A stretch of DNA of 64,000 nucleotides from Thermodesulfobacteriota bacterium (lineage in GTDB: Bacteria > Desulfobacterota > Desulfobulbia > Desulfobulbales > SURF-16): positions 340 through 64,339 of the forward strand of contig JBMONN010000007.1 of the NCBI GenBank assembly GCA_049323935.1. Reading direction: 5' to 3'. The position numbers were made by a program, and so were the translations under genes. Under the pieces are notes generated by a model. The model was given only the letters and a program-made list of their open reading frames with translations, was not told the DNA's origin and ran no database searches. Shown piece by piece: positions 13,249-43,519 of this stretch (position 1 is its first letter; the number at the start of each line of letters is the position of its first letter).

Positions 13249-13324
13249 TGGAGCGGACAACGGGATTCGAACCCGCGACACCAAGCTTGGGAAGCTTGTA
13301 CTCTACCAGCTGAGCTACGTCCGC
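13249..13324 (-). tRNA. tRNA-Gly (anticodon CCC)
   Basis: 76-nt cloverleaf folded by hand: GCGGACG/TA/GCTC-AGCTGGTA-GAGT/A/CAAGC-TTCCCAA-GCTTG/GTGTC/GCGGG-TTCGAAT-CCCGT/TGTCCGC/T/CCA. CCA is encoded. Confidence 0.92.
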
Positions 13325-13341: not shown

Positions 13342-13369
13342 ACTATACCTTTTTTTTTCTTCTTGTCAA
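13342..13369 (-). promoter_or_regulatory. Near-consensus sigma70-type promoter for tRNA-Gly
   Basis: On the minus strand, TTGACA (13369-13364), a 16-nt A-rich spacer, then TATAGT (13347-13342). The -10 element ends 17 nt before the mature tRNA 5' end. Confidence 0.55.
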
Positions 13370-13518: not shown

Positions 13519-14940
13519 TTAAAGGATTGTTCGGACGGCGCTGGTGGCGATCTCCAGAATCTGCTTTGGCGCTACCCCCATCACAATGATAACGACGATG
13601 AGGGCAATACTGACAAAACGGGTCATGAAGTCAATCCGCACATCCGGTCTCTCCTCGGGGGAGCTGCAGAAGGCGACCCGAACCACGGACAGATAATAGT
13701 AAATAGCAATGGCGGTATTCAGGGCGGCCAGGATGACCAAGGTAAGATGGCCAGCTTTCAGTGCCCCGGTCAGCAGCATAAACTTGCCCATGAAACCGAC
13801 AAACGGCGGGATACCGGCCAGCGCCATCATGCCGACCAGCAGGGTCAAGGCCAATAGTGGTGCACGTTTGTAGAGCCCGCTGAGATCCTCGACAAGGACA
13901 TTCTCGCCGTCTCGTGATACCTTGCAGATGACGACAAAGCAGGCAAGGTTCATAAAGAGATAACCGGCGATGTAATACATTGAGGTGGCAAAGCCGGCGG
14001 CATCAAGGGTGAGAAGGCCAAGCAGGACAAATCCCGCATGGGAAATACCGGAAAAACCGAGCATTCGCTTCACGTCCTTCTGAACAAGGGCGGAGAGATT
14101 TCCGTAAAACATGGAGCAAACGGCAAGGATCATCAGCATGGTTACCACCGTTTCGCCGGCATGAGGGGCAATCAGGGTGGTGATCCGGATCAGCAGGGCG
14201 ACCGCTCCCAATTTAGGAATAGAAGCGATAAAAGCTGTGGTGGCGTTTGATGCGCCTTGATAAACATCCGGAACCCAGAAGTGAAATGGAAAGACGGCGA
14301 GCTTATAGAAAAAGCCGCTCATGAAGAGGGCGATGGCCAGCATCGCTGTCGGCGAAGAGGCGATGCCATGCAGTTTCGGAACCAAGGCATTCAGATAGGT
14401 TGTGCCGGTCAGCCCGAAGATGAAGCTCATACCATACAGCATTATTGCAGTAGCGAGAGCGCCGAAAAGTATATACTTGATGCCGGCCTCCATTTGCATA
14501 CGCAACCCCTTATGGTCGCTGCGCATCGGGACCATAAGGTACAGAGAATAAGAGGAGAGTTCGAGGGCGATGAACAGGGTCAGCAGCTCGACACTGCTGA
14601 CCAGCATGACAAGCCCAACCATACTGAGGATCATAAAGAGATAATATTCAGGCTGGACGTCATCATCAACACCCTTCAGCTCACTGCCGAGAACCAGTAC
14701 CGCCACCAAGCCGACAGACATGGCAAATTTAAAAACCTGCGAAAAAAGATCGATGCGATAGGCATCAAAGAAAAGATTCCCCTCCAGTCGCAGCGTTGCG
14801 AAGCTCAGTATGCTCGACGCGATTGCAAGCACGAGGGCGACGTTTTTCGCAACCTTTCCCTTTCCCTTTCCCTCTCCCAGGGTGAGACAGAAGAGTACCA
14901 GACTTCCCGTCAGCAGTAATAATTCTGGTGCAAACAACAT
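13519..14940 (-). CDS. nuoN: Complex I antiporter-like subunit N
   Basis: 473 aa polytopic membrane protein. NuoN-type motif LTLFIALELSSYSLYLMV. Last gene of the operon. Confidence 0.9.
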   Translation of the reverse strand: MLFAPELLLLTGSLVLFCLTLGEGKGKGKVAKNVALVLAIASSILSFATLRLEGNLFFDAYRIDLFSQVFKFAMSVGLVAVLVLGSELKGVDDDVQPEYYLFMILSMVGLVMLVSSVELLTLFIALELSSYSLYLMVPMRSDHKGLRMQMEAGIKYILFGALATAIMLYGMSFIFGLTGTTYLNALVPKLHGIASSPTAMLAIALFMSGFFYKLAVFPFHFWVPDVYQGASNATTAFIASIPKLGAVALLIRITTLIAPHAGETVVTMLMILAVCSMFYGNLSALVQKDVKRMLGFSGISHAGFVLLGLLTLDAAGFATSMYYIAGYLFMNLACFVVICKVSRDGENVLVEDLSGLYKRAPLLALTLLVGMMALAGIPPFVGFMGKFMLLTGALKAGHLTLVILAALNTAIAIYYYLSVVRVAFCSSPEERPDVRIDFMTRFVSIALIVVIIVMGVAPKQILEIATSAVRTIL

Positions 14941-15013
14941 GTGTTTTCCTTATAGAGCTATGCCTGTATTCTTCAGCAAGCGGCCGCTGGCCGCTTGCCG
15001 CCAGATAATCACG

Positions 15014-16525
15014 TTACGGAACCATGTTCAGAGCCAGATGAGCCGCCTTTGCCATATTCACCTGTTCCAGCAGCGAATCAACACTGGTGTGCATCACGCT
15101 GAGAAAGGGTTCGGGAGCCAACCCGATCCAGAATACAAAGAAGAGCAGCGGCGTCAGGGTGACGATCTCCCGCAGATTCAGATCAGCGATGTCGGGCCTC
15201 CCCGGACCTTTGAACAGAACATACTGGAGCAGACGCATCATATAGGCCGCAGCCAGTATGGCACCGGGGATCGCTGCCCCGGCAATAATTTTGTTGACGC
15301 TGAAGGCCCCGGCCAGCACCATGAACTCGCCGACAAAACTGTTGGTGGCCGGAAAGGCCAGCGAGGACAGAGAAAAAATGGTCAGAAAGGAGACGAAGAT
15401 CGGCAGATTCTGGGCAATGCCGGAATGGTCCTTGAGTTCGCGGCTGTGAGTGCGCTCATACATCATGCCGACGCAGAGGAAGAGGGCGCCGGTGGTGACA
15501 CCATGATTGATCATCTGCAAAATAGCTCCCTCAACCCCGTTCCGGTTCAGAAAAAAGATACCAAGGGTGACAAAGCCCATGTGACCGACACTGGAGTAGG
15601 CAATGAGCTTCTTCATGTCGGACTGGGCCAGGGCGGTGAAACCGCCGTAGAGAATGGCGGCTACCGACATCCAGAGGATATAGGGGCCGAGGTTAAGGGT
15701 GGCGAGTGGAGTAATCGGCAGACAAAAGCGCAGAAAACCGTAGGTGCCCATTTTCAGCAGGATACTGGCCAGGATAACACTGCCGGCGGTGGGCGCTTCG
15801 ACATGAGCCGCCGGTAACCAGGTATGAAAAGGAAACATCGGCACCTTGATGGCAAAGGCCAGGAAAAAGGCGAGAAAGACCCAGATCTGGAAGGTAGTTG
15901 AATAGCCCTGGCCCATCATCAGCGGAATTGAGAAGGTGCCGGTGTGCAGGTAAAGGGCGATGATCGCCACAAGCAGCATAACGGAGCCGGCCAGAGTGTA
16001 GAGAAAAAACTTGATGGAGGCGTAAATCTTCCGGGGTCCGCCCCAGACCCCGATGAGCAGGTACATGGGAATGAGCATCGCTTCCCAGAGAATATAGAAG
16101 AGGACAAAATCCAGTGCCATGAAAACGCCGAGCATAGCGGTTTCCATGATGAGGAGACAGACCATGAACTCCTTGACCCGCTTCTGGATGTATGTCCAGG
16201 AGCCGAGCACGCAAAGCGGCATAATAAAGGTGGTGAGCAGCACAAGCAGCAGGCTGATCCCGTCTATCCCCAGGGTATAGTTGATGTTGAGCGCCGGAAT
16301 CCAGCTCATATGTTCGCCGAACTGGTATTTGGCGGTGGTCGCATCAAACCCGCTGTAGAGTGGAAAGGAGATGACCGCGGTGATGGTGGTGACCATCATG
16401 GTCCAGATCCGCTGGACATTTTCCCCTGGCAGGAAGAGCAGGATAAACGCACCGGCCAGGGGGAGAAATATCAGGGTGCTCAACAGGGGAAACCCTTCGT
16501 TCATGATTAGAAAATCCATTCCCAC
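15014..16525 (-). CDS. nuoM: Complex I antiporter-like subunit M
   Basis: 503 aa. NuoM-type motif FVLFYILWEAMLIPMYLLIGVWGG, then PMFPFHTWLPAAHVEAPTAGSVILA. Confidence 0.9.
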   Translation of the reverse strand: MGMDFLIMNEGFPLLSTLIFLPLAGAFILLFLPGENVQRIWTMMVTTITAVISFPLYSGFDATTAKYQFGEHMSWIPALNINYTLGIDGISLLLVLLTTFIMPLCVLGSWTYIQKRVKEFMVCLLIMETAMLGVFMALDFVLFYILWEAMLIPMYLLIGVWGGPRKIYASIKFFLYTLAGSVMLLVAIIALYLHTGTFSIPLMMGQGYSTTFQIWVFLAFFLAFAIKVPMFPFHTWLPAAHVEAPTAGSVILASILLKMGTYGFLRFCLPITPLATLNLGPYILWMSVAAILYGGFTALAQSDMKKLIAYSSVGHMGFVTLGIFFLNRNGVEGAILQMINHGVTTGALFLCVGMMYERTHSRELKDHSGIAQNLPIFVSFLTIFSLSSLAFPATNSFVGEFMVLAGAFSVNKIIAGAAIPGAILAAAYMMRLLQYVLFKGPGRPDIADLNLREIVTLTPLLFFVFWIGLAPEPFLSVMHTSVDSLLEQVNMAKAAHLALNMVP

Positions 16526-16583
16526 TATCCTCTGTTCACTCTATTATTCTTGTAATACCCATGAAAAATTCTTTTCGTCATCA

Positions 16584-18377
16584 TCAGGCAAAGACAAAGA
16601 CCAGAACCGCGGCAGCTGCCATGGATGCCGCAAAAAAAATGCTGTACTGAATGTTGCCTGCCTGCAGGCGGCGCATGGCCCCGCCGATGTTCCGGACCGT
16701 CCGGGCCGTGCCGTCGACGACACCGTCAATAGCATGCCAGTCAAACCATGACCAGAATTTGGAAATGGTCATCAACGGCAACAGACCGATGACGCGGTAA
16801 ATCTCGCCGACAGCGGTGTCAATGAACTGAAAGACCCTGGTGTCGACCCAGAGAAAGGCACGACCGCCCATCCGGTAAAACCAGTCAAGATCGAGGCTGA
16901 TGGTGGGAGTGGGCTCCAGGTACCGTTTCAGCAGAAAAAAGATGAGTCCGGTGCCGCCGATGATCTGCAAGGTCTCTGACAGATGGTAGGCAGTGTAGGG
17001 TTGATAGTCCACCGGAAAGGGCAGCATATTGTAAAGATAGGCGGTATAACAGCCGATAAAGGCACAGAGCACCGAGGCGATAGCCATGGCTGCCTGCATG
17101 TTCCAGGGCGGATCAGCCGCCTTTTCCCAGCGCTCGCTCGTGCAGTTGTTCTTGCCGAACCAGATGTAGTAAGGCACCTTGAGACCGGCGAGCAGGAACG
17201 TTCCGGCTGAAGCGAGAAGCAGGGCGAAGGCGGCCCACAGATTGTGGGAGGAAAAACCGGCGGCAATGATCATCGATTTGCTGACAAAGCCGCTGAAGAG
17301 CGGAAAGCCGGCAATGGACAAACCGCCAATCAAGGTAAAGAAAAAGGTGCGTGGCATCTTCTTGTAGAGGCCGCCCAGTTCGGTCAGTTTACCGGTGCCG
17401 GTCATATACAGCACGGAACCGGTGCCCATGAAGAGCAGGCCATTGTAAAGAATATGGGCAAAAGCATGAGCGGTGGCGCCATTAATGGCAAGTTCAGAGC
17501 CGATGCCGACGCCGACCACCATATAACCGACCTGACTCACCGTATCCCAGGCGAAGATGCGGCGACTGTCGTTTTCAATGACACCGTAAATAACCCCGTA
17601 AAGGGCCATGATCGCCCCCAGGGGAATCAGGATATCCATACCGGCAAACCCCCGGGCCAGGACATAAACCGCAGTTTTGGTAGTGAATGCGCACATGAAG
17701 ACGGCTCCGGCGACGCTTGCCTCAGCATAGGCATCGGGCAGCCAAGAGTGAAATGGAGGGACCGCTGCGTTGACGATAAAACCGATGAGGATGAGGTAGG
17801 TGGCGAGGCTCGGCATGTCAACCCCGATGGGCCCGAAGCTCAGATCACCGCCGGTGGTATAGTAACGCAAGACAAAGCCGGCGAGCAAAAAGAGGCCACC
17901 GATGGTATGAATGAGCAAATAGCGATAGCCGGTGGCAATCGACTGCGGCCCTTTCCGGTACCAGACCAGGAAAACCGAGGCAAAGGCCATCAACTCCCAG
18001 AAAAGAAAGAGGACAACATAATCGCCGCAGAGAATGACGCCGAGGGAGCCGGCAACATAGTACCAGGCGGCGACGATCTGGCCGTCTTCTTCGACGTTGA
18101 GGGCAAAAAGGCTCCCGATGATGCACATCAGCGACATGATGTAGGCAAACACCTGGCTGAGGGCGTCAACCCTGGCAAAAGTCAGATGCCAATCGAGAAA
18201 CTGCACCACACCGTAAACCCCCTTGTCCATGAAAAGCACGGTAAGGAAGGTGACTGTGGGGACAATCAGCAGATAGGCCTTGCGAGCCGCGCCACGCAGG
18301 CAGGGCACCAGCAGCCCGCCAAGAATCAGGATCAGGGACGGATGCATCCAGAAATTATTCATCGTAATAATCCTCAC
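16584..18377 (-). CDS. nuoL: NuoL-position antiporter-like subunit with a C-terminal lateral-helix-like region
   Basis: 597 aa. Antiporter core (LFLFWELMAFASVFLVWY, PPFHSWLPDAYAEASVAGAVFM). The C-terminal roughly 110 aa (DWFYRMGGRAF...IDGVVDGTARTVRNIGGAMRRLQAGNIQYSIFFAASMAAAAVLVFVFA) resembles the NuoL/MrpA amphipathic helix plus final TM anchor. It lacks the canonical NuoL WEGVGL signature, so L-like is the safer label. Confidence 0.75.
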   Translation of the reverse strand: MRIITMNNFWMHPSLILILGGLLVPCLRGAARKAYLLIVPTVTFLTVLFMDKGVYGVVQFLDWHLTFARVDALSQVFAYIMSLMCIIGSLFALNVEEDGQIVAAWYYVAGSLGVILCGDYVVLFLFWELMAFASVFLVWYRKGPQSIATGYRYLLIHTIGGLFLLAGFVLRYYTTGGDLSFGPIGVDMPSLATYLILIGFIVNAAVPPFHSWLPDAYAEASVAGAVFMCAFTTKTAVYVLARGFAGMDILIPLGAIMALYGVIYGVIENDSRRIFAWDTVSQVGYMVVGVGIGSELAINGATAHAFAHILYNGLLFMGTGSVLYMTGTGKLTELGGLYKKMPRTFFFTLIGGLSIAGFPLFSGFVSKSMIIAAGFSSHNLWAAFALLLASAGTFLLAGLKVPYYIWFGKNNCTSERWEKAADPPWNMQAAMAIASVLCAFIGCYTAYLYNMLPFPVDYQPYTAYHLSETLQIIGGTGLIFFLLKRYLEPTPTISLDLDWFYRMGGRAFLWVDTRVFQFIDTAVGEIYRVIGLLPLMTISKFWSWFDWHAIDGVVDGTARTVRNIGGAMRRLQAGNIQYSIFFAASMAAAAVLVFVFA

Positions 18378-18606
18378 GGGTCATGATTCCCAAACTACCG
18401 AGAAAACGGGCGAGAAGGATGAGCGCCGCGCCACCGAACAGGCCGAAAAAGGTCCAGAAAAAGGGCAGTTTCTCCATATCGGTGTGGGCATGGCTGGTAT
18501 CAACCATGAATGATCCCCAGAAGGCGATCACAACGATCATGACAAGACAGGCGATGATGGTCGCCTTCAAGCGATCGCGGAAAAATTGAATAAACGAGGT
18601 TATCAT
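18355..18606 (-). CDS. Small two-TM membrane protein of unknown function inside the nuo operon
   Basis: 83-aa ORF MITSFIQFFRDRLKATIIACLVMIVVIAFWGSF...LPFFWTFFGLFGGAALILLARFLGSLGIMTREDYYDE. Two hydrophobic spans. Its start overlaps the upstream stop by 4 nt, and the downstream gene starts 23 nt before its stop. Coding status is inferred from coupling and hydrophobicity only. Confidence 0.5.
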   Translation of the reverse strand: MITSFIQFFRDRLKATIIACLVMIVVIAFWGSFMVDTSHAHTDMEKLPFFWTFFGLFGGAALILLARFLGSLGIMTREDYYDE

Positions 18607-20102
18607 CCTATCACCGCCTTAACGAAGTTCATGAAAAAATCCGGATAGATACCGATTATAACCGAGATAATCGACGCTGTGAACAGCGGCACCACCATGG
18701 AGAGCGGCGCCTCCTTTACCCCCTCGTAGGGCTCGCCGGCCGGCCGCGGCCCGAAAAAGGCCTTGTAGGCGACCGGAGCAAAATAGCCGACGTTGAGCAA
18801 TGTACTGGCAAGCAGCACCAGCAGGATGCCAAGGGAGCCCGACTCGATGGTGCCGACCAGCAGCTCCCATTTGGTGACAAAGCCCGCCACCGGCGGAGCG
18901 CCGATCATGCTCAACGAGGCAATGGCAAAGGCAGCAAAGGTAAAGGGCATGGTCCGCCCCAGTCCGCTCATCTCCGAGATGTTCTTTTTGTGAGTGGCGA
19001 CATAGATGGCGCCGGCGCAGAAGAAGAGAGTGATCTTGGAGAAGGCGTGGTTGGCGATGTGGATGAGACCGCCGGCGATGCCGTGCGGAGTCAGCAGGCA
19101 GACGCCGAGAATGATGTAGGAGAGCTGACTCACGGTTGAATAGGCGAGCCTCGCCTTCAGATTATCCTTGGTCAGCGCGATGACCGAGGCCATGACAATG
19201 GTGAAGCCGACAAAATAGGCGGTGGGGATACCGAGATTCAACGCTCCCATCAGGTCGGTGCCGAAGACGTAGAGCATGACCCGGGCGGTGGAGAAGACAC
19301 CGACCTTGACGACCGCCACCGCATGAAGCAGGGCGCTGACCGGGGTTGGAGCGACCATGGCGCCTGGGAGCCAGTGGTGGAAAGGCATGACGCCGTTCTT
19401 GGCAAAGCCGAAAAGACAGAAGATAAAGAGCATGGTGACGAGCGCCCCGTTGGCCCCGTCCGGGATGATGCCGGTATTGATGTTATGGGGAAAATCCAGT
19501 GAGCCGGTCAGCACGTAAATAATGGCCAGGGCGGGCAGCAGAAAGGCCTTGGCCGTGGTAGTCAGATAGACGATGTACTTCTTGGCGCCCTCGTAAGCCT
19601 CTTCGTCCTGGTGATGGGCGACCAGCGGGTAGGTGCAGACGCTGACGATCTCGTAGAAGAGATACAAGGTGAAGAGATTGTCGGAGAAGGCGACACCGAT
19701 GGCGCCGAAGATGGCGATGGCAAAACAGGTGTTAAAACGGGTCTGGGCGTGTTCATGGAGGCCGCGCATATAGCCCATGGAGTAGAAGGCGGCGGCAATC
19801 CACAGCGACGAGGCAACCAGGGCAAAAATCATCGAGAGGGCGTCGGCCCGCAGGGTGACGGTGATACCCGGCAGGATCTTGAACATCTGGTAATAAAGGG
19901 TTTTGCCGGCGAGCACCGGAGAAATGAGACTGGCGACCAGGGAAAAGAGAATAACGGCGGAAACCACGGACCAGGTCTCGCGCAGATTGGGTTTCTTCCC
20001 GGAGAGGGACACCAGAAACGAGCCCAGCAGGGGAACGATCAGGGTCCAGACCAATTTACTCGTGGTGACAATCTCGCCTGTTGCGGCGCTGACGGTTTCC
20101 AT
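18603..20102 (-). CDS. Additional MrpD/NuoM-like antiporter subunit
   Basis: 499 aa. Motifs DNLFTLYLFYEIVSVCTYPLV and MPFHHWLPGAMVAPTPVSALLHAVAVVKVG. No C-terminal lateral-helix extension. Starts 15 nt after the nuoK stop. Confidence 0.8.
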   Translation of the reverse strand: METVSAATGEIVTTSKLVWTLIVPLLGSFLVSLSGKKPNLRETWSVVSAVILFSLVASLISPVLAGKTLYYQMFKILPGITVTLRADALSMIFALVASSLWIAAAFYSMGYMRGLHEHAQTRFNTCFAIAIFGAIGVAFSDNLFTLYLFYEIVSVCTYPLVAHHQDEEAYEGAKKYIVYLTTTAKAFLLPALAIIYVLTGSLDFPHNINTGIIPDGANGALVTMLFIFCLFGFAKNGVMPFHHWLPGAMVAPTPVSALLHAVAVVKVGVFSTARVMLYVFGTDLMGALNLGIPTAYFVGFTIVMASVIALTKDNLKARLAYSTVSQLSYIILGVCLLTPHGIAGGLIHIANHAFSKITLFFCAGAIYVATHKKNISEMSGLGRTMPFTFAAFAIASLSMIGAPPVAGFVTKWELLVGTIESGSLGILLVLLASTLLNVGYFAPVAYKAFFGPRPAGEPYEGVKEAPLSMVVPLFTASIISVIIGIYPDFFMNFVKAVIG

Positions 20103-20116
20103 GATTTTCCTCGATG

Positions 20117-20440
20117 CTATCCGTTAAGTTCAACCAGATCTTCGGTTTCAATGGACTTGTAATTTCTATAAACAGCCAGCACGATGCTCAGCGCAATGGC
20201 GGCCTCGGCCGCAGCAATGGCCATGATGAACAGGGTGATAATCTGACCGACAGTAGGATCCGGTGCAAGAAAACGGTTGAACGCCATGAAGTTGATCGAG
20301 GCGCCGCTTAATACGAGCTCCACGGCGATCAGCATGCCGATCAGGCTGGGACGACGCAGGAGACCAAAGATGCCAAAACCGAAGAGCACGGCACCGATAA
20401 TGAGATATGTATTGAGGTGGCTGCTGAGTGTCAACATCAC
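20117..20440 (-). CDS. nuoK: Complex I subunit K
   Basis: 107 aa with three TM segments, ND4L/NuoK-like (EAAIALSIVLAVYR). ATGA overlap with nuoJ. Confidence 0.9.
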   Translation of the reverse strand: MMLTLSSHLNTYLIIGAVLFGFGIFGLLRRPSLIGMLIAVELVLSGASINFMAFNRFLAPDPTVGQIITLFIMAIAAAEAAIALSIVLAVYRNYKSIETEDLVELNG

Positions 20441-20967
20441 GCGTTCCCCCTCCCGCTTCTGGCCAGCACCAGGGAACCGATAATGGCGACAAGCAGGACG
20501 ATTGAGATGAGTTCAAAGACCATGCTGTAGGAAGTCAGCAGGCTCATGCCCACCTCCTTCAACGAACCGTCATTTATTTTAGCAGCAGGCGACATCCACT
20601 GACCCTTTACCGCCGCATAACCCAGTGCATAGGCAAAGGCGCCGCCGCACACCGCGGCAAGCCCACCGCTCAAACCGGTGATTTTACGGGATTGGCGTGC
20701 CTCGTTTGGTTCGGCGAGCATGATGGCAAAGGCAATGGTGACGCAGACGGCGCCGACATAAATGAGCAGCTCCATCAGGGCCACGAAGGGGCTGTTCAGA
20801 TAGTAGTAAAGACCAGCGACGCCGAGAAAACAGACGGCCAAGCCGGTGACACTTCTGATCAGGCGCCTGGAACAGGTGGCGATGATCGCCCCCACCAAGG
20901 TGACGCCGATCACGGCCAGAAAAATGAGTCCGCCCAAGCCTTCCGGCGAAAACAGTGAAGGATTCAT
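20437..20967 (-). CDS. nuoJ: Complex I subunit J
   Basis: 176 aa membrane protein in the J position, with NuoJ-like LELLIYVGAVCVTIAFAIML. Confidence 0.85.
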   Translation of the reverse strand: MNPSLFSPEGLGGLIFLAVIGVTLVGAIIATCSRRLIRSVTGLAVCFLGVAGLYYYLNSPFVALMELLIYVGAVCVTIAFAIMLAEPNEARQSRKITGLSGGLAAVCGGAFAYALGYAAVKGQWMSPAAKINDGSLKEVGMSLLTSYSMVFELISIVLLVAIIGSLVLARSGRGNA

Positions 20968-21530
20968 CAGCTTTGTTCCTCCGCAGATTCTTTCTTGGCC
21001 GCCTGCTTCTTTTCCGCAGCGGCTTTCTTGGCTGCCTCCTTCTTTTCCTCCTCCTGCCTCAGGAGCTCCGGATCAACCTTGGGCTCAGGCACCCCTTCTG
21101 GATGGAGCCGTTGCAGGAGATCGAAGGTAAAATCCTCCCGACGGGTGCTGGCCAGGTTATAGTCCTTGGAAAAGGTGATAGCCTCGGGCTTGCAGTTATC
21201 GACACACTGGCCGCAGAGACTGCAGGTGGTGAAATTGAGTATATAGGCGGTCACCACCTTGCCCTTGACCCCGGGGCGTTTTTCCGACTTCACCGTGATG
21301 CAGCCGGACGGGCAGCCCTTTTCACACATACCGCAGGCAATGCAACGATGGGTGCCGGTCTTTTCATCCTTGACCATCTCGATGTGCCCCCGGTAGCGGG
21401 GAGTCATCTTCAGCGCTTCGTGGGGATACTGCAGGGTGATCGGTTTTTTAACAAATTCTTTAATGGTGATGTTCAGGCCGATCACCAGACTCTTGGTCCC
21501 GTTCAGCAAATCTCTAAAGTACCCGGACAT
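20967..21530 (-). CDS. nuoI: Complex I subunit I (2x[4Fe-4S] ferredoxin-like) with a Lys/Ala/Glu-rich C-terminal tail
   Basis: The track ORF extends to 21734. I place the start at the ATG at 21530 (MSGYFRDLLNGTKS...), 2 nt after the nuoH stop. Cluster motifs CIACGMCEKGCP and CSLCGQCVDNCP. Tail is ...EEEKKEAAKKAAAEKKQAAKKESAEEQS. Confidence 0.88.
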   Translation of the reverse strand: MSGYFRDLLNGTKSLVIGLNITIKEFVKKPITLQYPHEALKMTPRYRGHIEMVKDEKTGTHRCIACGMCEKGCPSGCITVKSEKRPGVKGKVVTAYILNFTTCSLCGQCVDNCKPEAITFSKDYNLASTRREDFTFDLLQRLHPEGVPEPKVDPELLRQEEEKKEAAKKAAAEKKQAAKKESAEEQS

Positions 21531-21532
21531 AA

Positions 21533-22516
21533 TCAGAAGACCTTTATGAATGCGGCGGTAAGCAGCAGGTTGACAAGCGAAAAGGGAATCAGGTATTTCC
21601 AGGAAAGATTGAGCAGACCCCAGAGGGTCACCCGCGGGTAGGTCCAGCGAATCCAGACAAAGCACCAGACCAGGAAATACATCTTGATGAGGAACCAGTG
21701 CACTCCGGGAAAGAGACCGAACGGACACTGCCACCCACCGAGAAAAAGAATGGTGGTAAGACAGCAGCCGACGACCAGGTTGGCGTACTCGGCCATCATG
21801 AAGAGACCGAAACCCATGCCGCCGTATTCGGTCATGTGTCCGGCGATCAGTTCGCTCTCCGCCTCGCCGAGATCGAAGGGCGCTCGGTTGGCCTCTGCCA
21901 GGGTGCAGACGAAGAAGACGAGAAAGGAAATCGGCATGAGGATCGACTTATCGAGCCGAAAGATGTTCCAGTTCCAGAACATGCCGCTCTGCTGACGGAT
22001 GATCTCGTTGAGATTCATGGTGCCTGCCACCATCACGATGGTCATGGCGGTGATCAGCATGGGGATCTCATAGGCGATGTTCTGGGAAACCGCCCTGGTG
22101 CCGGCGATCAGCGAATACTTATTGCGTGACCCCCAACCGGCGATGAGAATGGACAGAGCCGCCAGGGAGGCAAAGGCGAAGATCATCAGCAGCCCAAGAT
22201 CGAACTCCCTGGGCACAAGGGTCTCGGACCAGGGAATGGCGACATAGACGAGCACCGCCGGGGTCATGATAAGAATCGGTGCTGCCATGTAGAGGGCGCG
22301 ATCGGCGCCGTCCGGAATGATCAGCTGCTTGGACATCAGCTTGAGTCCGTCGGCCAGCGGCTGCAGCAGACCGTAGGGCCCGACCTCCTTCGGCCCGTTG
22401 CGGCGCTGGATATGACCCGCGCCCTTCCGCTCCACCCAGCCCAAATAGGCGAGATTGAGGCCGAGGAAGGCAGAAATACCGATCAGGTAACTGAGCACCC
22501 GTACCAATTCGTCCAT
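21533..22516 (-). CDS. nuoH: Complex I subunit H
   Basis: 327 aa. NuoH signature RAPFDLGEAESELIAGHMTEYGG. Confidence 0.93.
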   Translation of the reverse strand: MDELVRVLSYLIGISAFLGLNLAYLGWVERKGAGHIQRRNGPKEVGPYGLLQPLADGLKLMSKQLIIPDGADRALYMAAPILIMTPAVLVYVAIPWSETLVPREFDLGLLMIFAFASLAALSILIAGWGSRNKYSLIAGTRAVSQNIAYEIPMLITAMTIVMVAGTMNLNEIIRQQSGMFWNWNIFRLDKSILMPISFLVFFVCTLAEANRAPFDLGEAESELIAGHMTEYGGMGFGLFMMAEYANLVVGCCLTTILFLGGWQCPFGLFPGVHWFLIKMYFLVWCFVWIRWTYPRVTLWGLLNLSWKYLIPFSLVNLLLTAAFIKVF

Positions 22517-22527
22517 AATGTTTCTCC

Positions 22528-23649
22528 TTACCGGTCCATCTCCGGGATAACGAGATCAAGGCTTCCCATGAAGGCCAGCGCATCGGCAAGCAGCATGCCC
22601 CTGCTCGCCTCCTCGAACAGGCTGAGATTGGAGAAGGTGGGCGACCTGATCTTCATCCGGTATGCCTGATTGGTGCCGTCGCTGACCGCACGCATGGCGT
22701 AGGTGCCGCGAGCCGCCTCAACGGCGAAGTAGAAGTCGCCCTTCGGCGGTTTCAATGCCTTAGGCACCTTTTCCGCCATCACCGGTCCCTGTGGCAACTT
22801 GTTCAGGGCCTGCTCGATAATGCGCATGGACTGCATGATCTCATCCATCCGCACCATATACCGGGCCATGGAGTCGCATTCGGTATAGACCGGCACATCA
22901 AAGTCAAATTCCGGATACACACTGTAGGGTTCGTTCTTGCGGACATCAAAATTGACGCCGGAACCGCGCAGGACCGGGCCGCTGGCACCGTATTTCCGAC
23001 ACATCTCGGCGGAGACCGGGCCAATGCCGATAAGTCGCTCCATCAGAATGACGTTGCCGGTGACCAGATCGTGATACATGGGCATGCGGGCGCGAAGCCG
23101 CTTGATAAAGGCATGGGTGCCGGTAACGAAATCATCGTCGATATCGTTATAAACACCGCCGAAACGAAAATAACAGTAAGTGAGCCGCGATCCGGTGACC
23201 GATTCCAGCAGGTCGAGGATGATCTCCCGATCGTCAAAGGCGTAGAGAAGCGGGGTGAAGCCGCCGAGGTCGAGAACAAAGGCGCCGAACCAGAGAAGAT
23301 GGCTCTGGATGCGGTTGAGTTCCACGGTGATGACCCGGATGTATTCGGCCCGCTCCGGCACCTCGATACCCATGGCCCGCTCGACCAGACCGGCATAGCC
23401 GTGGTTGTAAGCCATGGCGGAAAGATAATCCATCCTGCCGAGATTGGGCCAGAACTGGTTCCAGGTGCGATTCTCACCCATTTTTTCATGCATGCGGTGG
23501 ATATAACCGAGCACCGGTTCCGCATTGACCACATACTCGCCATCCATGGTCAGCTTGACGCGGAGAACACCGTGGGTGGCAGGATGCTGCGGCCCCAGGT
23601 TCAGCTCGAAGGTCTCATACAGCTGGCTTTGGGCAAATGAACGGCTCAT
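22528..23649 (-). CDS. nuoD: Complex I subunit D (49-kDa/NiFe large-subunit-like)
   Basis: 373 aa. LNLGPQHPATHGVLR near the N-terminus. ATGA overlap with nuoC. Only 11 nt separate it from nuoH. Confidence 0.93.
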   Translation of the reverse strand: MSRSFAQSQLYETFELNLGPQHPATHGVLRVKLTMDGEYVVNAEPVLGYIHRMHEKMGENRTWNQFWPNLGRMDYLSAMAYNHGYAGLVERAMGIEVPERAEYIRVITVELNRIQSHLLWFGAFVLDLGGFTPLLYAFDDREIILDLLESVTGSRLTYCYFRFGGVYNDIDDDFVTGTHAFIKRLRARMPMYHDLVTGNVILMERLIGIGPVSAEMCRKYGASGPVLRGSGVNFDVRKNEPYSVYPEFDFDVPVYTECDSMARYMVRMDEIMQSMRIIEQALNKLPQGPVMAEKVPKALKPPKGDFYFAVEAARGTYAMRAVSDGTNQAYRMKIRSPTFSNLSLFEEASRGMLLADALAFMGSLDLVIPEMDR

Positions 23650-24239
23650 GGCTTATAATCCTTGCGTAATGGATAAAAATCCGCGTCATCGGGCAGGAGA
23701 AAACGTTCCAGTTGCGGGTGGCCGACAAAATTGATACCGAGCAGATCCCAGGTTTCCCGCTCATGCCAGTTGGCGCCAGGGAAAATGGCGGAAACGGTGG
23801 GAACATCCGGTTTATCGCGGTCGATGCGGGTTCGGACAACAACGCGGAACTGGGCCGCGCCGGTATAACTGTAATCGTAGATCACCTCGAACTGCTTGTC
23901 ATTGATCCAGTCGACTCCGGTTACCGCTTCTATGGTCATCCCCTCGTCATCGAGAATGGATGCCGCTTCAACCACCTGGTCAGGGGCAACCTGAACATCA
24001 AGATGGGTTCCCCGCTTGGCGTATTCGGTAACCAGGAGACCGTTTTCCCGAGGCTTTTCCACTTCCTTCTTCTTGCCCTTGGCATCTGTTTCTTCCCCGC
24101 CAGCCGGCGTCTCGGCTTCCTGCGGCGGGGATGACTGACCGGCAAGCCCTTGAGCAGCCAGCTTCTCCAGTTCACGTTGTATCTTCGCTCGATCCATATT
24201 CAGTACCATGTGTTCGGCTGCGGCCCGGGGGGCGGGCAC
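23646..24239 (-). CDS. nuoC: Complex I subunit C (30-kDa) with a charged N-terminal extension
   Basis: 197-aa ORF with a GTG start; the true start is uncertain (ATGs at 24209 and 24197, none with a clear SD). Core motif FPGANWHERETWDLLGINFVGHP. The first roughly 60 aa are a Lys/Glu/Pro-rich extension. Confidence 0.85.
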   Translation of the reverse strand: MPAPRAAAEHMVLNMDRAKIQRELEKLAAQGLAGQSSPPQEAETPAGGEETDAKGKKKEVEKPRENGLLVTEYAKRGTHLDVQVAPDQVVEAASILDDEGMTIEAVTGVDWINDKQFEVIYDYSYTGAAQFRVVVRTRIDRDKPDVPTVSAIFPGANWHERETWDLLGINFVGHPQLERFLLPDDADFYPLRKDYKP

Positions 24240-24263
24240 ACGAAAAAAGGCTGCGGGTGGGTT

Positions 24264-24782
24264 TTATTCCGGCGTGACCCGCGGCCAGCGGCGTTTACCG
24301 GTCAGCTTTTCCTCCAGGGCAAGAATCCCCTCGATCAGGGCCTCGGGGCGAGGAGGACATCCGGGAATGTAAACATCCACCGGCAGAAAGCTGTCCGCCC
24401 CCTCGACGACATTGTACTGCCCCTCGAAGACAAAGGGGCCGCCGGATATCGCACAGTTGCCCATGGCAATGACCCATTTGGGTTCCGGCATCTGATCATA
24501 GAGGGTCTTGACCGCAGGCAGCATTTTCTTGTTTACCGTACCGGCAACAATCATGACATCGGCCTGGCGCGGGGACGGACGAAAAACCTCGGCTCCGAAA
24601 CGGGCAAGATCAAAGCGGGAGGCGCCGGCCGCCATCATTTCAATGGCACAGCAGGCAAGACCGAAGGTCATGGGCCACAGCGAGTTGGCCCGGCACAGAT
24701 TGCGCAGTTTATCAAACTGGGCAAACTGGACTAACGCAGATGGTATGTTTTCCGTTCCCACTTGAACACTCCCTTTTTCCAT
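24264..24782 (-). CDS. nuoB: Complex I subunit B (N2 cluster subunit)
   Basis: 172 aa with cluster cysteines in [19 protein letters not shown] and [11 protein letters not shown]. The annotated start overlaps the nuoA 3' end by 52 nt, so the exact start is uncertain. Confidence 0.9.
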
Positions 24783-25135
24783 GCGTAAACGATCGCCAGG
24801 GACAGGATCCCGACAAAAATAACGATCTCAACAAAATCTCGGATGCCCAATGTGGCATCGTTGTAGGCCATGACGACCGGAAACAGAAAGAGGACATCCA
24901 CGTCAAAGGCCAGAAAGATCAAGGCATAAAGGTAATAGACGATGCCATAGCGAATCCAGGCGTCGCCAATGGGTTCCATGCCGCATTCAATCGGTTTGCC
25001 GGTTCTGTTGGCGACATTGCGGGTGGTACGTGGGGCGAAGAGGTAGGCGATAATGATGGGGCCGAAGCCGAAGGCGAGTCCGCAGAGGAGAAAGGCGGCG
25101 ACATAGAGGAGATCCAAGAGAGATTGCTGTTCCAC
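24731..25135 (-). CDS. nuoA: Complex I subunit A
   Basis: The track ORF runs to 25255. I place the start at the GTG at 25135 ([15 protein letters not shown]...), preceded by AAGGAG at 7-nt spacing, giving 134 aa. NuoA signature KPIECGMEP...[19 protein letters not shown]. Confidence 0.8.
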
Positions 25136-27359: not shown

Positions 27360-27435
<76 letters not shown>

Positions 27436-41722: not shown

Positions 41723-43519
41723 ATGAAGCCCCGCCTTGCTCTCCTCTTTATGCTGCTCTGCGTCCTTTTTCTCGTGATCCGGGAAAATCTGACCAAACGG
41801 CCCGAGCGTCTCCACCAGACCAGCGCCGGCCAGGTGGAGATGTGCCTGGAGTGCCACAAAACCGAACAACTCGATCCCGCCCATGACCGGTTGGTGATGG
41901 GCTGCTCTCCCTGCCATCTCGGTGACGCCCTGGCCATTGACAAGGACAGGGCGCACACAGCCATGGTCAAAAACCCAGGCGACCTGCGGGTGGTGGAAAA
42001 AACCTGCGGGGTGGAGGGCTGCCATGCGCCGGACGTGAAAAAGGTCAAAAATTCGCTGATGGCCACCAACCGTGGCATCCTTGCCACCCTCCTCTACTAC
42101 TGGGGCGAGGCGCCGGACCAGAACGGCGATTTTTCGGTGGAACAGCTGCTGGCCAGCAACCAGACCTCCCTGGCCATCGACTACTACCGAAAACTTTGCG
42201 CCACCTGCCACCTCTGGAAACAGAAAGGCGACCTGCCCGGTTTCTTCGGGGAAAAGGGCGGCGGCTGCACGGCCTGCCACTTTGTCAAGGACGGCAACCT
42301 CACTGCCGAGCAGGCGAAAAAGGTACATCCGCGCATCGTCAAACAGGTGCCGGTGAGCAACTGTGTCCGCTGCCACAACCGCAGTGGTCGCATCGGCATC
42401 TCCTATACCGGCGTCTATGAGTCGGAAAACTACGGCACCCCCTACACCAAGGGCGGCATGTCGGAAAAACGGCTGCCCGGCGACCGCTATTATCTCAGCC
42501 TGCCCGCTGATATCCACCACCAGAAAGGCATGGCCTGTATCGACTGCCACACGAGAAACGAGATCATGGGCGACGGCACCCGTTACGCCCATTACGAAAA
42601 CCAGCTTGAAATCACCTGCAAAACCTGTCATGTTCCGGCTGGCGAGACGACGAACGAACCTGGCTTGACCCGCAAAGGCGATAAACTAACAAACATCGTT
42701 GGCGACGAGGCGGGCTGGCAGCTGACCAACAAGCTCACAGCCGACAAAAAGCACCCCATCCGACCGCCCAAGGCCGGGATCTGCGACTTTGCCGGCCACA
42801 AGCGGGTCGGCTGCGAGGCCTGCCATTCCGGCTGGGTGCCGCAGTGTTACGGCTGCCACGTCAAGCAGGACAAAAGGGAAACCGATCTCGACAAACTGAC
42901 CTTGACCGAAACGCCGGGCTGGTGGATTGAGGGTCGCTCCTCTCTCCGGTACGAACGGCCGATGCTGGCCGTCTGGGCTGACGAGGTGGTGATCGTCACC
43001 CCCGGCTGCCAGGACATCGTCTCGGTGGTCAACGCCCAAGGCAAAGCGGAGCAACACTTCAACAGCCTGACCATGGCCGCCATCAACCCACACACCACCC
43101 AGACCAGGGGACGAAGCTGCGCTGACTGCCACCAGTCGCCGAAAACCATTGGTCTCGGCGAGGGCACCATCTGGCGGGAAGCGGGCGAGTGGCGTTTCAA
43201 TGCCGCGGCCCAAGGGCTTGTCACCGCGGCAGGCGTCACCCCGCCGCTTGACGCCTATGTCGCCATTGACGGGACCCCCTTACAGAAATCGGCCCGGCCC
43301 GATCTGCGGCCCTTCAACAAAGAGGAACTGGCCCGCATCCTCCGTGTCGGCCTCTGCATCGACTGCCACAAGGAGTACTCGGACCCGGCTTACCGCACCT
43401 ATACGCCGGCAACAACATGCCCGGTCTATCGGGAAGAGAAAGATGGTGGGCCGGCACCCCAGAAGAATCCCGCCATTACCGCCACGGAAAAAAAACCGGC
43501 GCTGGAGAAAAAACCATGA
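41723..43519 (+). CDS. Multiheme c-type cytochrome (11 CxxCH plus 1 CxxxxCH) with an N-terminal signal/anchor
   Basis: 598 aa. Hydrophobic N-terminus MKPRLALLFMLLCVLFLVI. Heme motifs in order: CLECH, CSPCH, CGVEGCH, CATCH, CTACH, CVRCH, CIDCH, CKTCH, CEACH, CYGCH, CADCH, CIDCH. Starts 1 nt after the nadE stop, and its stop overlaps the hisD ATG. Confidence 0.85.
   Translation: MKPRLALLFMLLCVLFLVIRENLTKRPERLHQTSAGQVEMCLECHKTEQLDPAHDRLVMGCSPCHLGDALAIDKDRAHTAMVKNPGDLRVVEKTCGVEGCHAPDVKKVKNSLMATNRGILATLLYYWGEAPDQNGDFSVEQLLASNQTSLAIDYYRKLCATCHLWKQKGDLPGFFGEKGGGCTACHFVKDGNLTAEQAKKVHPRIVKQVPVSNCVRCHNRSGRIGISYTGVYESENYGTPYTKGGMSEKRLPGDRYYLSLPADIHHQKGMACIDCHTRNEIMGDGTRYAHYENQLEITCKTCHVPAGETTNEPGLTRKGDKLTNIVGDEAGWQLTNKLTADKKHPIRPPKAGICDFAGHKRVGCEACHSGWVPQCYGCHVKQDKRETDLDKLTLTETPGWWIEGRSSLRYERPMLAVWADEVVIVTPGCQDIVSVVNAQGKAEQHFNSLTMAAINPHTTQTRGRSCADCHQSPKTIGLGEGTIWREAGEWRFNAAAQGLVTAAGVTPPLDAYVAIDGTPLQKSARPDLRPFNKEELARILRVGLCIDCHKEYSDPAYRTYTPATTCPVYREEKDGGPAPQKNPAITATEKKPALEKKP

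Follow-up and report, generated by a model that had tools for sequence, protein, structure and literature searches.

A nuo operon without nuoEFG from a Desulfobulbales-type bacterium encodes a complex I-like enzyme with the membrane-arm design of green complex I

What kind of enzyme is encoded by a nuo operon that carries three coupled genes in the place of nuoL and is devoid of nuoE, nuoF, and nuoG? This question is raised by positions 13519-25135 of a 64,000-nucleotide stretch (the window) of contig JBMONN010000007.1 of a Thermodesulfobacteriota bacterium (assembly GCA_049323935.1), where the minus strand holds 13 consecutive open reading frames (ORFs) in the order nuoA-B-C-D-H-I-J-K-D1-x-D2-nuoM-N. 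We use D1 for the 499-amino acid protein, x for the 83-amino acid protein, and D2 for the 592- or 597-amino acid protein encoded between nuoK and nuoM. All 13 ORFs that an earlier note on this DNA had assigned to a complex I-type operon were present, and in profile searches each of the 12 large ones matched the expected Pfam or NCBIfam family. By its best protein matches, the source belongs to Thermodesulfobacteriota, near Desulfobulbaceae, and is a bacterium of the sulfur cycle. The operon probably specifies a complex I-like enzyme of 13 subunits that reduces menaquinone in this Desulfobulbales-type bacterium and has the membrane arm of green complex I, the type whose NuoL has given way to two MrpD-like subunits (Degli Esposti & Martinez-Romero 2016, FEMS Microbiol Ecol 92:fiw084, as described in PMC9040806). 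The three genes on which this reading turns are the following.

18603..20102, minus strand: D1 (499 amino acids), antiporter-like, with an MrpA/NuoL-type core and without lateral helix (NF006236, PF00662, PF00361)
18355..18606, minus strand: x (83 amino acids), two-helix membrane protein specific to the D1-x-D2 module (conserved position and motifs)
16584..18362, minus strand: D2 (592 amino acids), antiporter-like, with transmembrane helix (TM) 15, lateral helix, and TM16 (NF009310, Proton_antipo_M, AlphaFold2 model)

The genes of the operon are translationally coupled on a single strand: the D1 stop and the x start overlap in the sequence ATGA, and the ATG of D2 at 18362 lies within x, with an overlap of 8 nt. 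This start codon is used by database homologues of D2 and in the NCBI call for a 99%-identical metagenome-assembled genome (MAG; locus L086), so that the 597 codons previously listed hold for the maximal ORF and the protein itself has 592 residues. With the start codons of the same annotated MAG, B, C, I, K, and M are also slightly shorter than their maximal ORFs.

D1 scored 821 bits against the NCBIfam equivalog model NF006236 (cutoff, 663 bits), covering profile positions 4 to 492 of 493, and contains a Proton_antipo_N domain and a complete Proton_antipo_M domain (residues 140 to 434). We aligned D1 and D2 with NuoL, NuoM, NuoN, HyfB, HyfD, and HyfF of Escherichia coli and with rhizobial and archaeal homologues. 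In this alignment D1 has the TM5 Glu, the TM7 Lys, His and Lys in TM8, His-His-Lys in TM11, and the TM12 Lys, and the residues E151, K235, H260, K266, H348, H352, K356, and K411 are kept in 73 to 75 of 75 orthologues. The combination of His and Lys in TM8 is a signature of MrpA (PMC7419157). D1 had been described as an MrpD/NuoM-like protein without C-terminal extension; the latter part stands, as D1 ends directly after TM14 and has no lateral helix, whereas its core is better labelled MrpA/NuoL-type because of the TM8 His and Lys, the TM11 His-His-Lys, and the Proton_antipo_N domain. Judged by these residues, the pump core of D1 is of the MrpA/NuoL type, and none of the canonical charged residues is missing from it. 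Its best match among PDB sequences was MbhH (6cfw_H, 1e-44).

D2 reached 714 bits against NF009310 (cutoff, 564 bits) over profile positions 4 to 581 of 584 and combines a complete Proton_antipo_M domain (residues 119 to 389) with a C-terminal extension. It has the TM5 Glu, an MrpD-type TM8 with Lys only, His-His in TM11, and the TM12 Lys; at the position of the TM7 Lys it has an Asn (N203 in the 597-residue numbering). Of 82 sequences, 81 share this Asn, which also occurs in the orthologue of Sinorhizobium meliloti and in a haloarchaeal D2-like protein; we did not find this family-wide Lys-to-Asn change stated in the accessible literature. At residue 312 (597-residue numbering), the third charged position of TM11 and the equivalent of NuoL K342, the window and eight close relatives have Asn and 73 other orthologues have Lys; a second conserved lysine of D2 has therefore been lost in this lineage.

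For the C-terminal part of D2, which the earlier note had likened to the NuoL/MrpA lateral helix followed by a terminal TM, an AlphaFold2 model was built from a 69-sequence alignment (overall predicted local distance difference test score [pLDDT], 82). It comprises a 14-helix core, TM15 (residues 458 to 477), one continuous helix (493 to 563), and TM16 (571 to 591), in agreement with that description. The modelled lateral helix measures 71 residues or ~106 Å (pLDDT of 44 to 77 in this region), and the interval from TM15 to TM16 is 93 residues compared to 81 in E. coli NuoL, i.e., ~12 longer; the lateral helix is of ordinary length, which bears out the earlier note on this point. In a Foldseek search the D2 model matched MrpA best (7qru_A, TMq of 0.76), and also NdhF and NuoL. 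The best PDB sequence match of D2 was MbsH' (1e-38), the PDB sequence search yielded no close homologue of D1 or D2 with a solved structure, and the C-terminal 154 residues of D2 alone gave only chance matches to PDB sequences. By sequence and model, D2 is the subunit that contributes TM15, the lateral helix, and TM16, joined to a core of the MrpD type.

The two hydrophobic helices ascribed to the 83-residue ORF were found again in x, which sits between D1 and D2 in 79 other loci as well as in S. meliloti. No Pfam or NCBIfam family was matched in the profile search; conserved motifs are HAHT..E..PGFW..FGF and, at the C terminus, GIMTREDYYD. Among 1.84 billion representatives the x family forms 77 clusters of 61 to 142 amino acids, and in none of these clusters is x fused to D1 or D2. 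By its conservation, x is a genuine gene, which apparently encodes a two-helix accessory subunit. A derivation of x from NuoL TM15 and TM16 with the helix deleted was rejected, as hhalign gave no signal against D2, D1, M, N, or E. coli NuoL (probability below 1%). In the haloarchaeal D1-like protein (640 amino acids), the extra length is an internal insertion and not x.

Neither large protein comes near the cutoffs of the NuoL, NuoM, and NuoN models. For the canonical NuoL model TIGR01974 (cutoff, 407.5 bits) D1 scored 210 and D2 153 bits, and for the NuoM model TIGR01972 (cutoff, 264 bits) the values were 180 and 143 bits; nuoM is the one ORF that passes. The profile searches proposed earlier for the two proteins thus ended in two separate full-length equivalogs, as dedicated NCBIfam models exist for D1 (NF006236) and D2 (NF009310), both annotated as "antiporter subunit D." In a neighbour-joining (NJ) tree of 20 sequences D1 and D2 formed clades of their own apart from NuoM and did not group with E. 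coli NuoL with support, the deep branches that connect D1 and D2 with the L, M, N, and Hyf proteins not being resolved in this tree. In the same tree D1 and D2 were orthologous to the pair encoded on S. meliloti pSymA (clades with 98 to 100% bootstrap), which likewise has x in between. D1 and D2 are each a full 14-helix antiporter-like protein, and together with NuoM and NuoN, also full-size by their family models, they make up the four antiporter-like subunits that had been proposed.

The pSymA operon reads nuoJ-K-(MrpD family, 487 amino acids)-(hypothetical, 84 amino acids)-(Na+/H+ antiporter subunit D, 586 amino acids)-nuoM-N-A-B-C-D-E-F-G, and a tblastn search of plasmids with D2 returned more than 100 megaplasmids of Sinorhizobium, Rhizobium, and Ensifer at 51% identity. 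When one genome per species was scanned, relatives of D2 were present in at least 548 species genomes. The 80 best loci, with 10 kb on either side, were annotated through BLAST comparison with the proteins of the window. The order A-B-C-D-H-I-J-K-D1-x-D2-M-N without E, F, and G was found in nearly all complete loci among these 80, which belong to Desulfobulbales, Desulfurivibrionaceae, Desulfovibrio/Fundidesulfovibrio, Geobacteraceae, Verrucomicrobia, and Opitutaceae, so that the co-occurrence for which a check had been proposed recurs in essentially all of them. At one locus (L077) a further pair of NuoM/NuoN-like genes (positions 3-2243) directly adjoins nuoA of the green-type operon on its upstream side, perhaps as the terminal part of another nuo cluster.

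A handful of Desulfocapsa-type loci (L030, L032, L037, and L042, also L027 and L049) have the variant order K-M-D1-x-D2-N. Compared to the window, M, D1, and D2 of these loci are 65 to 76% identical, whereas A to K and N are only 24 to 57% identical; in loci of the ordinary order the conservation of NuoB and NuoD equals that of D1 and D2. The set of M, D1, x, and D2 therefore behaves as a transferable distal module, and these identities indicate that an M-D1-x-D2 cassette has been exchanged between different complex I backbones. Such behaviour, which we did not find stated in the accessible literature, extends the hybridisation idea of PMC9040806.

The remaining ten genes of the operon encode the subunits A, B, C, D, H, I, J, K, M, and N of a complex I-like quinone oxidoreductase (the NUO11 core), all of which were matched.

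24731..25135, minus strand: nuoA (134 amino acids), PF00507 (Oxidored_q4), E = 6e-28; start according to the NCBI call in the 99%-identical MAG L086
24264..24761, minus strand: nuoB (165 amino acids), ligands of cluster N2; PF01058 (Oxidored_q6), TIGR01957 with 229 bits
23646..24197, minus strand: nuoC (183 amino acids), with a low-complexity N-terminal extension; PF00329 (Complex1_30kDa), E = 3e-34; MAG gene call
22528..23649, minus strand: nuoD (373 amino acids), quinone-site subunit; PF00346 (49kDa), E = 2e-91; NF004739 with 443 bits (cutoff, 360)
21533..22516, minus strand: nuoH (327 amino acids), PF00146 (NADHdh), E = 5e-111; start 11 nt past the nuoD stop
20967..21485, minus strand: nuoI (172 amino acids), two [4Fe-4S] clusters and a Lys/Glu/Ala-rich C-terminal tail; TIGR01971 with 111 bits
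20437..20967, minus strand: nuoJ (176 amino acids), PF00499 (Oxidored_q3), E = 8e-32
20117..20437, minus strand: nuoK (106 amino acids), PF00420 (Oxidored_q2), E = 7e-22
15014..16519, minus strand: nuoM (501 amino acids), TIGR01972 with 598 bits; NJ clade with E. coli NuoM, 100% bootstrap
13519..14940, minus strand: nuoN (473 amino acids), TIGR01770 with 358 bits (cutoff, 333); NJ clade with E. coli NuoN, 100% bootstrap

NuoB keeps both the tandem-Cys motif for ligation of N2 and the motif PGCPPRPE. NuoD has lost the cysteine ligands of the NiFe centre, with no CxxC at either terminus, and retains GPQHPATHGV and GRMDYL with the quinone-site His of the β1-β2 loop and the quinone-site Tyr, respectively; we take these to be the equivalents of H38 and Y87 of Thermus thermophilus. 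NuoI has two CxxCxxCxxxC motifs, and NuoM has a Glu in TM12 as in canonical NuoM. By their motifs and family matches, the Q-module made up of NuoB, C, D, and I is canonical, as is the proximal membrane module of NuoA, H, J, K, and N, and M and N are orthologues of NuoM and NuoN.

Two features of the core subunits were recorded besides. The C-terminal ~45 residues of NuoI (window positions 20967-21110) form a Lys/Glu/Ala-rich low-complexity tail (…EEEKKEAAKKAAAEKKQAAKKESAEEQS), which is common only to the closest relatives (L002-L006 and L051) and shorter in L007 and L026; most NuoI orthologues end ~33 residues past the second Fe-S motif. The tail is therefore no property of the family, and a role as a conserved ferredoxin-docking feature was discarded. 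NuoC starts with a charged, Pro/Gly/Lys-rich extension of ~65 residues before the Complex1_30kDa domain (window positions 24030-24197) and is the least conserved of the larger subunits across loci, with 31 to 74% identity.

The nuoD stop codon (22528) and the nuoH ATG (22516) are separated by a gap of 11 nt, as read directly in the sequence, and homologues of nuoE, nuoF, or nuoG were found neither in the operon nor among the large ORFs of the 64-kb window that were scanned. Both observations of the earlier note, the 11-nt junction and the absence of nuoEFG in cis, were thereby reproduced. Because no N-module is encoded in cis, the chain NuoI-NuoB-NuoD is intact, and the organism is of the menaquinone type, electron transfer from a ferredoxin-type donor to menaquinone is the likeliest reaction. 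Electrons would enter at NuoI from a cytoplasmic donor of low potential, which is most likely reduced ferredoxin and not NADH, and would pass to menaquinone, coupled to the translocation of up to five ions per 2 e− via the four antiporter-like subunits and the channel formed by NuoH, A, J, and K. Calculated from standard potentials, the step from ferredoxin to menaquinone yields ~68 to 83 kJ per 2 e−, which is enough for 4 to 5 H+ at a normal proton motive force. With four antiporter-like subunits, 5 H+/2e− would be possible, provided that D2 pumps in spite of the missing TM7 Lys. Alternatively, the enzyme might run backward, the larger H+/e− ratio pushing quinol electrons up to ferredoxin.

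The operon could also belong to an ordinary NADH:quinone oxidoreductase whose NuoEFG proteins have their genes at another place in the genome, which we consider unlikely. This assumption would fit the rhizobial orthologous operon, which includes nuoE-F-G, and a Verrucomicrobia subdivision 3 MAG (L062), in which NuoE- and NuoF-like genes were detected ~5 kb downstream of nuoN (positions 19936-21778) with three unrelated ORFs in between. These E and F homologues were the only ones within 10 kb of the 80 related loci; nuoA to nuoD were not detected upstream of nuoH in L062. The locus of Desulfurivibrio dismutans (L052) has the same 13-gene order as the window, and when sulfur is disproportionated its 13-gene Nuo cluster (RS03515-03575) shows strong up-regulation (PMC12142623). 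The authors of that study describe the arm as NuoAHJKLMN, without a remark on the replacement of NuoL. D. dismutans does have NuoEFG homologues at a distant locus, but they sit with hydrogenase genes and were assigned by the authors to Hox/Mvh (PMC12142623). In addition, the step from NADH to menaquinone yields ~47 kJ per 2 e− by the same calculation, too little for five or even four protons at a normal proton motive force.

Another explanation would be that D1-x-D2 is an Mrp-derived Na+/H+ antiporter module inserted in the nuo operon, which either works independently of complex I or turns the complex from a translocator of H+ alone into one of Na+. On plasmids of Natronorubrum aibiense and Rhizobium rosettiformans, Mrp-type operons end in a D1-like and a D2-like gene side by side, in the order mrpE-F-G-A'(C-terminal domain)-B-C-D-D1like-D2like. 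This pairing, which we did not find stated in the accessible literature, suggests an Mrp origin of the pair; similar extra genes were noted in a "group 3" Mrp locus (PMC7784846). In both plasmids (L084, 7346-12692, from N. aibiense; L085, 6400-11032, from R. rosettiformans) E-F-G-DUF4040/MnhB-C are followed by three antiporter-like genes. The C-terminally extended subunit of Natronorubrum has a TM7 Asn as in D2, and that of R. rosettiformans keeps the TM7 Lys and has Ala in place of the TM5 Glu. An inserted antiporter would also agree with MrpA as the best fold match of D2, with the Lys-to-Asn exchange in TM7, which alters the canonical proton-input site, and with the occurrence of the module in haloalkaliphilic Desulfurivibrio. 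However, the operon has no other NuoL, and without D2 the arm would lose its lateral helix and TM16. Homologues of MrpB, MrpE, MrpF, MrpG, and the C-terminal domain of MrpA were not found in the operon by profile search, the genes are translationally coupled to nuoK and followed by nuoM, across phyla they sit between K and M without variation, and in current Mrp models Na+ bypasses the MrpA/D-type subunits (PMC7419157). An added Na+/H+ antiporter is therefore improbable.

How the fourth pump subunit is held in a green-type arm depends on D2. The lateral helix HL is known to scale with the number of antiporter-like subunits it spans, which is one in MBH, two in MBS and Mrp, and three in complex I (PMC8165549). 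As the helix of D2 is of canonical three-subunit length and has no 26-residue insert, it could brace only three of the four pump subunits. The distal pump module of NuoL and NuoM is replaced by a co-inherited cassette of NuoM, D1, x, and D2, and as subunit order N-M-D1-D2 is slightly favoured over N-M-D2-D1. In the order N-M-D1-D2 the canonical interface between NuoM with its TM12 Glu and an L-type core would be kept, and the helix-bearing subunit would be at the distal end, where all solved relatives have it and where the Mrp gene order also suggests it to be. The TM12 Lys of D1 could pair with the TM5 Glu of D2 and so compensate for the missing TM7 Lys. The cassette would then be self-contained, the helix bracing D2-D1-M, with TM16 docking near the boundary of M and N and NuoN outside the span of the helix. 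In the order N-M-D2-D1, TM16 would occupy the canonical site at N/J/K, D1 would lie outside the brace, and the NuoM Glu would be next to the Glu/Asn pair of D2.

As a tentative and rather doubtful extension, D2 might be a specialised "brace" subunit in which the invariant absence of the TM7 Lys rewires the point of coupling to its neighbour, and {NuoM, D1, x, D2} a portable Mrp-derived three-pump module that has been swapped into unrelated backbones, converting them from 4 to 5 H+/2e− as a ferredoxin:menaquinone oxidoreductase or a quinol-to-ferredoxin reverse pump. As the helix is only of three-subunit length, one pump subunit would then function outside its span, a situation seen in no solved structure of complex I, Mrp, MBH, or MBS.

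That the operon encodes a high-stoichiometry complex I of the 2M type is very unlikely. In this type, known from Nitrospira and others, there is a second NuoM and the NuoL helix is longer by ~26 residues and spans four subunits (Chadwick et al. 2018, ISME J 12:2668, as described in PMC9040806). The number of four antiporter-like subunits would fit, and the organism may need reverse electron transport. The window has no second NuoM paralogue, though, as one ORF only reaches the NuoM cutoff and the clades of D1 and D2 are separate from NuoM, and the ~26-residue lengthening is also absent, the helix region of D2 being ~12 residues longer than that of E. coli NuoL. Green and 2M types are moreover treated as distinct (PMC9040806). 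The suspicion that the fourth module is held differently from the described 2M variants was thus confirmed, since D2 does not have their extension.

That D1 and D2 are two pieces of an ordinary NuoL, split by a frameshift or by gene fission in an enzyme with the normal three pumps, can be dismissed, for although the NuoL-type N-terminal domain (PF00662) of D1 and the NuoL-type C-terminal helix of D2 are superficially complementary, a complete Proton_antipo_M domain, the TM5 Glu, TM8 Lys, and TM12 Lys, and a full-length equivalog of its own are found for each of the two, the model of D2 alone shows a 14-helix core followed by TM15, the lateral helix, and TM16, and the pair is kept as two genes in more than 70 genomes. 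Domain content, residues, and model thus refute the split, which the earlier note had listed among its refuting outcomes.

Several points weigh against the assignment as a menaquinone-reducing enzyme with a green complex I arm. What is said above of donor, ion, stoichiometry, and direction of operation is inferred throughout. Without the TM7 Lys, D2 may not pump, in which case 4 and not 5 ions would be translocated per 2 e−. With nuoEFG in the rhizobial operon and the E and F homologues of L062, an NADH module elsewhere in the genome is possible. Confidence in the modelled lateral-helix region of D2 is moderate, as seen from the pLDDT values given above, and the order N-M-D1-D2 is only slightly favoured.

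The operon is flanked upstream by a murC-like gene, a gene for tRNA-Ala, mreBCD, and the gene for PBP2, and downstream by a gene for tRNA-Gly, rimP, nusA, and infB. The tRNA-Ala(GGC) gene is at 27360-27435, upstream of the murC-like gene, and that for tRNA-Gly(CCC) lies directly downstream of nuoN (13249-13324, minus strand), preceded by a near-consensus sigma-70-like promoter (TTGACA-16-TATAGT, 13342-13369, minus strand). Scans for such signals detected terminator-like sites no more often than in shuffled sequences and promoter-like sites about twice as often (14 versus a mean of 7.2 with a standard deviation of 2.7), none of the listed sites being positioned to mark the ends of the operon. 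Farther away, on the plus strand, an ORF of 598 codons (41723-43519) shows weak matches to multihaem cytochrome c families (MtrC/MtrF-like, c7, c3) and adjoins genes for NAD synthase and histidinol dehydrogenase.

The carriers of the design include sulfur disproportionators, relatives of cable bacteria, Desulfovibrio, Geobacteraceae, Verrucomicrobia, and nitrogen-fixing rhizobia. They offer a natural experiment on whether a lateral helix is needed to couple every pump subunit and whether the pair of TM5 Glu and TM7 Lys is indispensable. An extra pump combined with a donor at the level of ferredoxin would change estimates of the energy yield of sulfur disproportionation, and the same change would touch reverse electron transport in anaerobes and in symbiotic nitrogen fixation. 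The novelty implied by the earlier note did not hold: gene order and design are largely catalogued already, under the name green complex I, in the NCBIfam equivalogs, and by their recurrence in the 80 loci. The window itself is a further instance of an already named, very common design annotated by hidden Markov models, and no discovery.

Among systems with solved structures, the arms of MBS and MBH of Pyrococcus (PDB 6U8Y and 6CFW) are the best sequence relatives, but share only 20 to 25% identity. MBH shows that an L-type pump core can be without a lateral helix of its own and receive one in trans. Both differ from the window in having different redox modules on the opposite side of the arm and shorter lateral helices, which span one or two subunits. 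The Mrp antiporters with extra antiporter-like subunits ("group 3" type) contain a D1-like protein with 46% (Natronorubrum) or 38% identity to D1 of the window, and the D2-like protein of Natronorubrum (32% identity to D2) also has a C-terminal helix plus TM. These antiporters possess MrpB, C, E, F, and G, have neither a redox module nor x, and function in cation/proton antiport.

Like the window, the 2M enzymes and Complex_I_3 of "Ca. Manganitrophaceae" have more than three antiporter-like subunits, and both are proposed to raise the H+/e− ratio for reverse electron transport to ferredoxin. Complex_I_3 even has the same two MrpD-like subunits as the window, in the combination D1+D2+2M+N and with a 26-residue insert in the helix of D2 (PMC9040806). 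In contrast, the window has one NuoM and a helix without insert, and rhizobial MrpD2 is also without the 26-residue insert, which is found when a further NuoM is added (PMC9040806). The EFG-less 11-subunit enzymes (NUO11, e.g., of Desulfitobacterium hafniense; PMC11238625) resemble the window in having no N-module, an intact Q-module and proximal arm, ferredoxin as probable donor, and menaquinone as acceptor, but they have a single canonical NuoL where the window has D1, x, and D2. An operon of Desulfovibrio africanus was labelled "NUO11+M" (Degli Esposti 2015, PMC4758237); its layout may be the same as that of the window.

The closest relative is green complex I of rhizobia, described as having a peculiar gene order and being up-regulated in symbiosis (PMC7415380). 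It has D1-x-D2 between nuoK and nuoM, followed by an orthologous NuoM, in common with the window, with identities of 57% for D1, 36% for x, 51% for D2, and 52% for M, and rhizobial D2 is collinear with that of the window over its full length, including the lateral helix and the TM7 Asn. The backbone subunits A, J, K, N, and D show just 30 to 41% identity. The rhizobial operon is rearranged to J-K-D1-x-D2-M-N-A-B-C-D-E-F-G with H and I apart, and it includes nuoEFG, whereas the window operon does not and keeps the ancestral order A-B-C-D-H-I-J-K...M-N. As the replacement of NuoL by D1-x-D2 is the published green complex I, the design of the membrane arm is already catalogued, and the operon in the window is an EFG-less member of this design with ancestral gene order.

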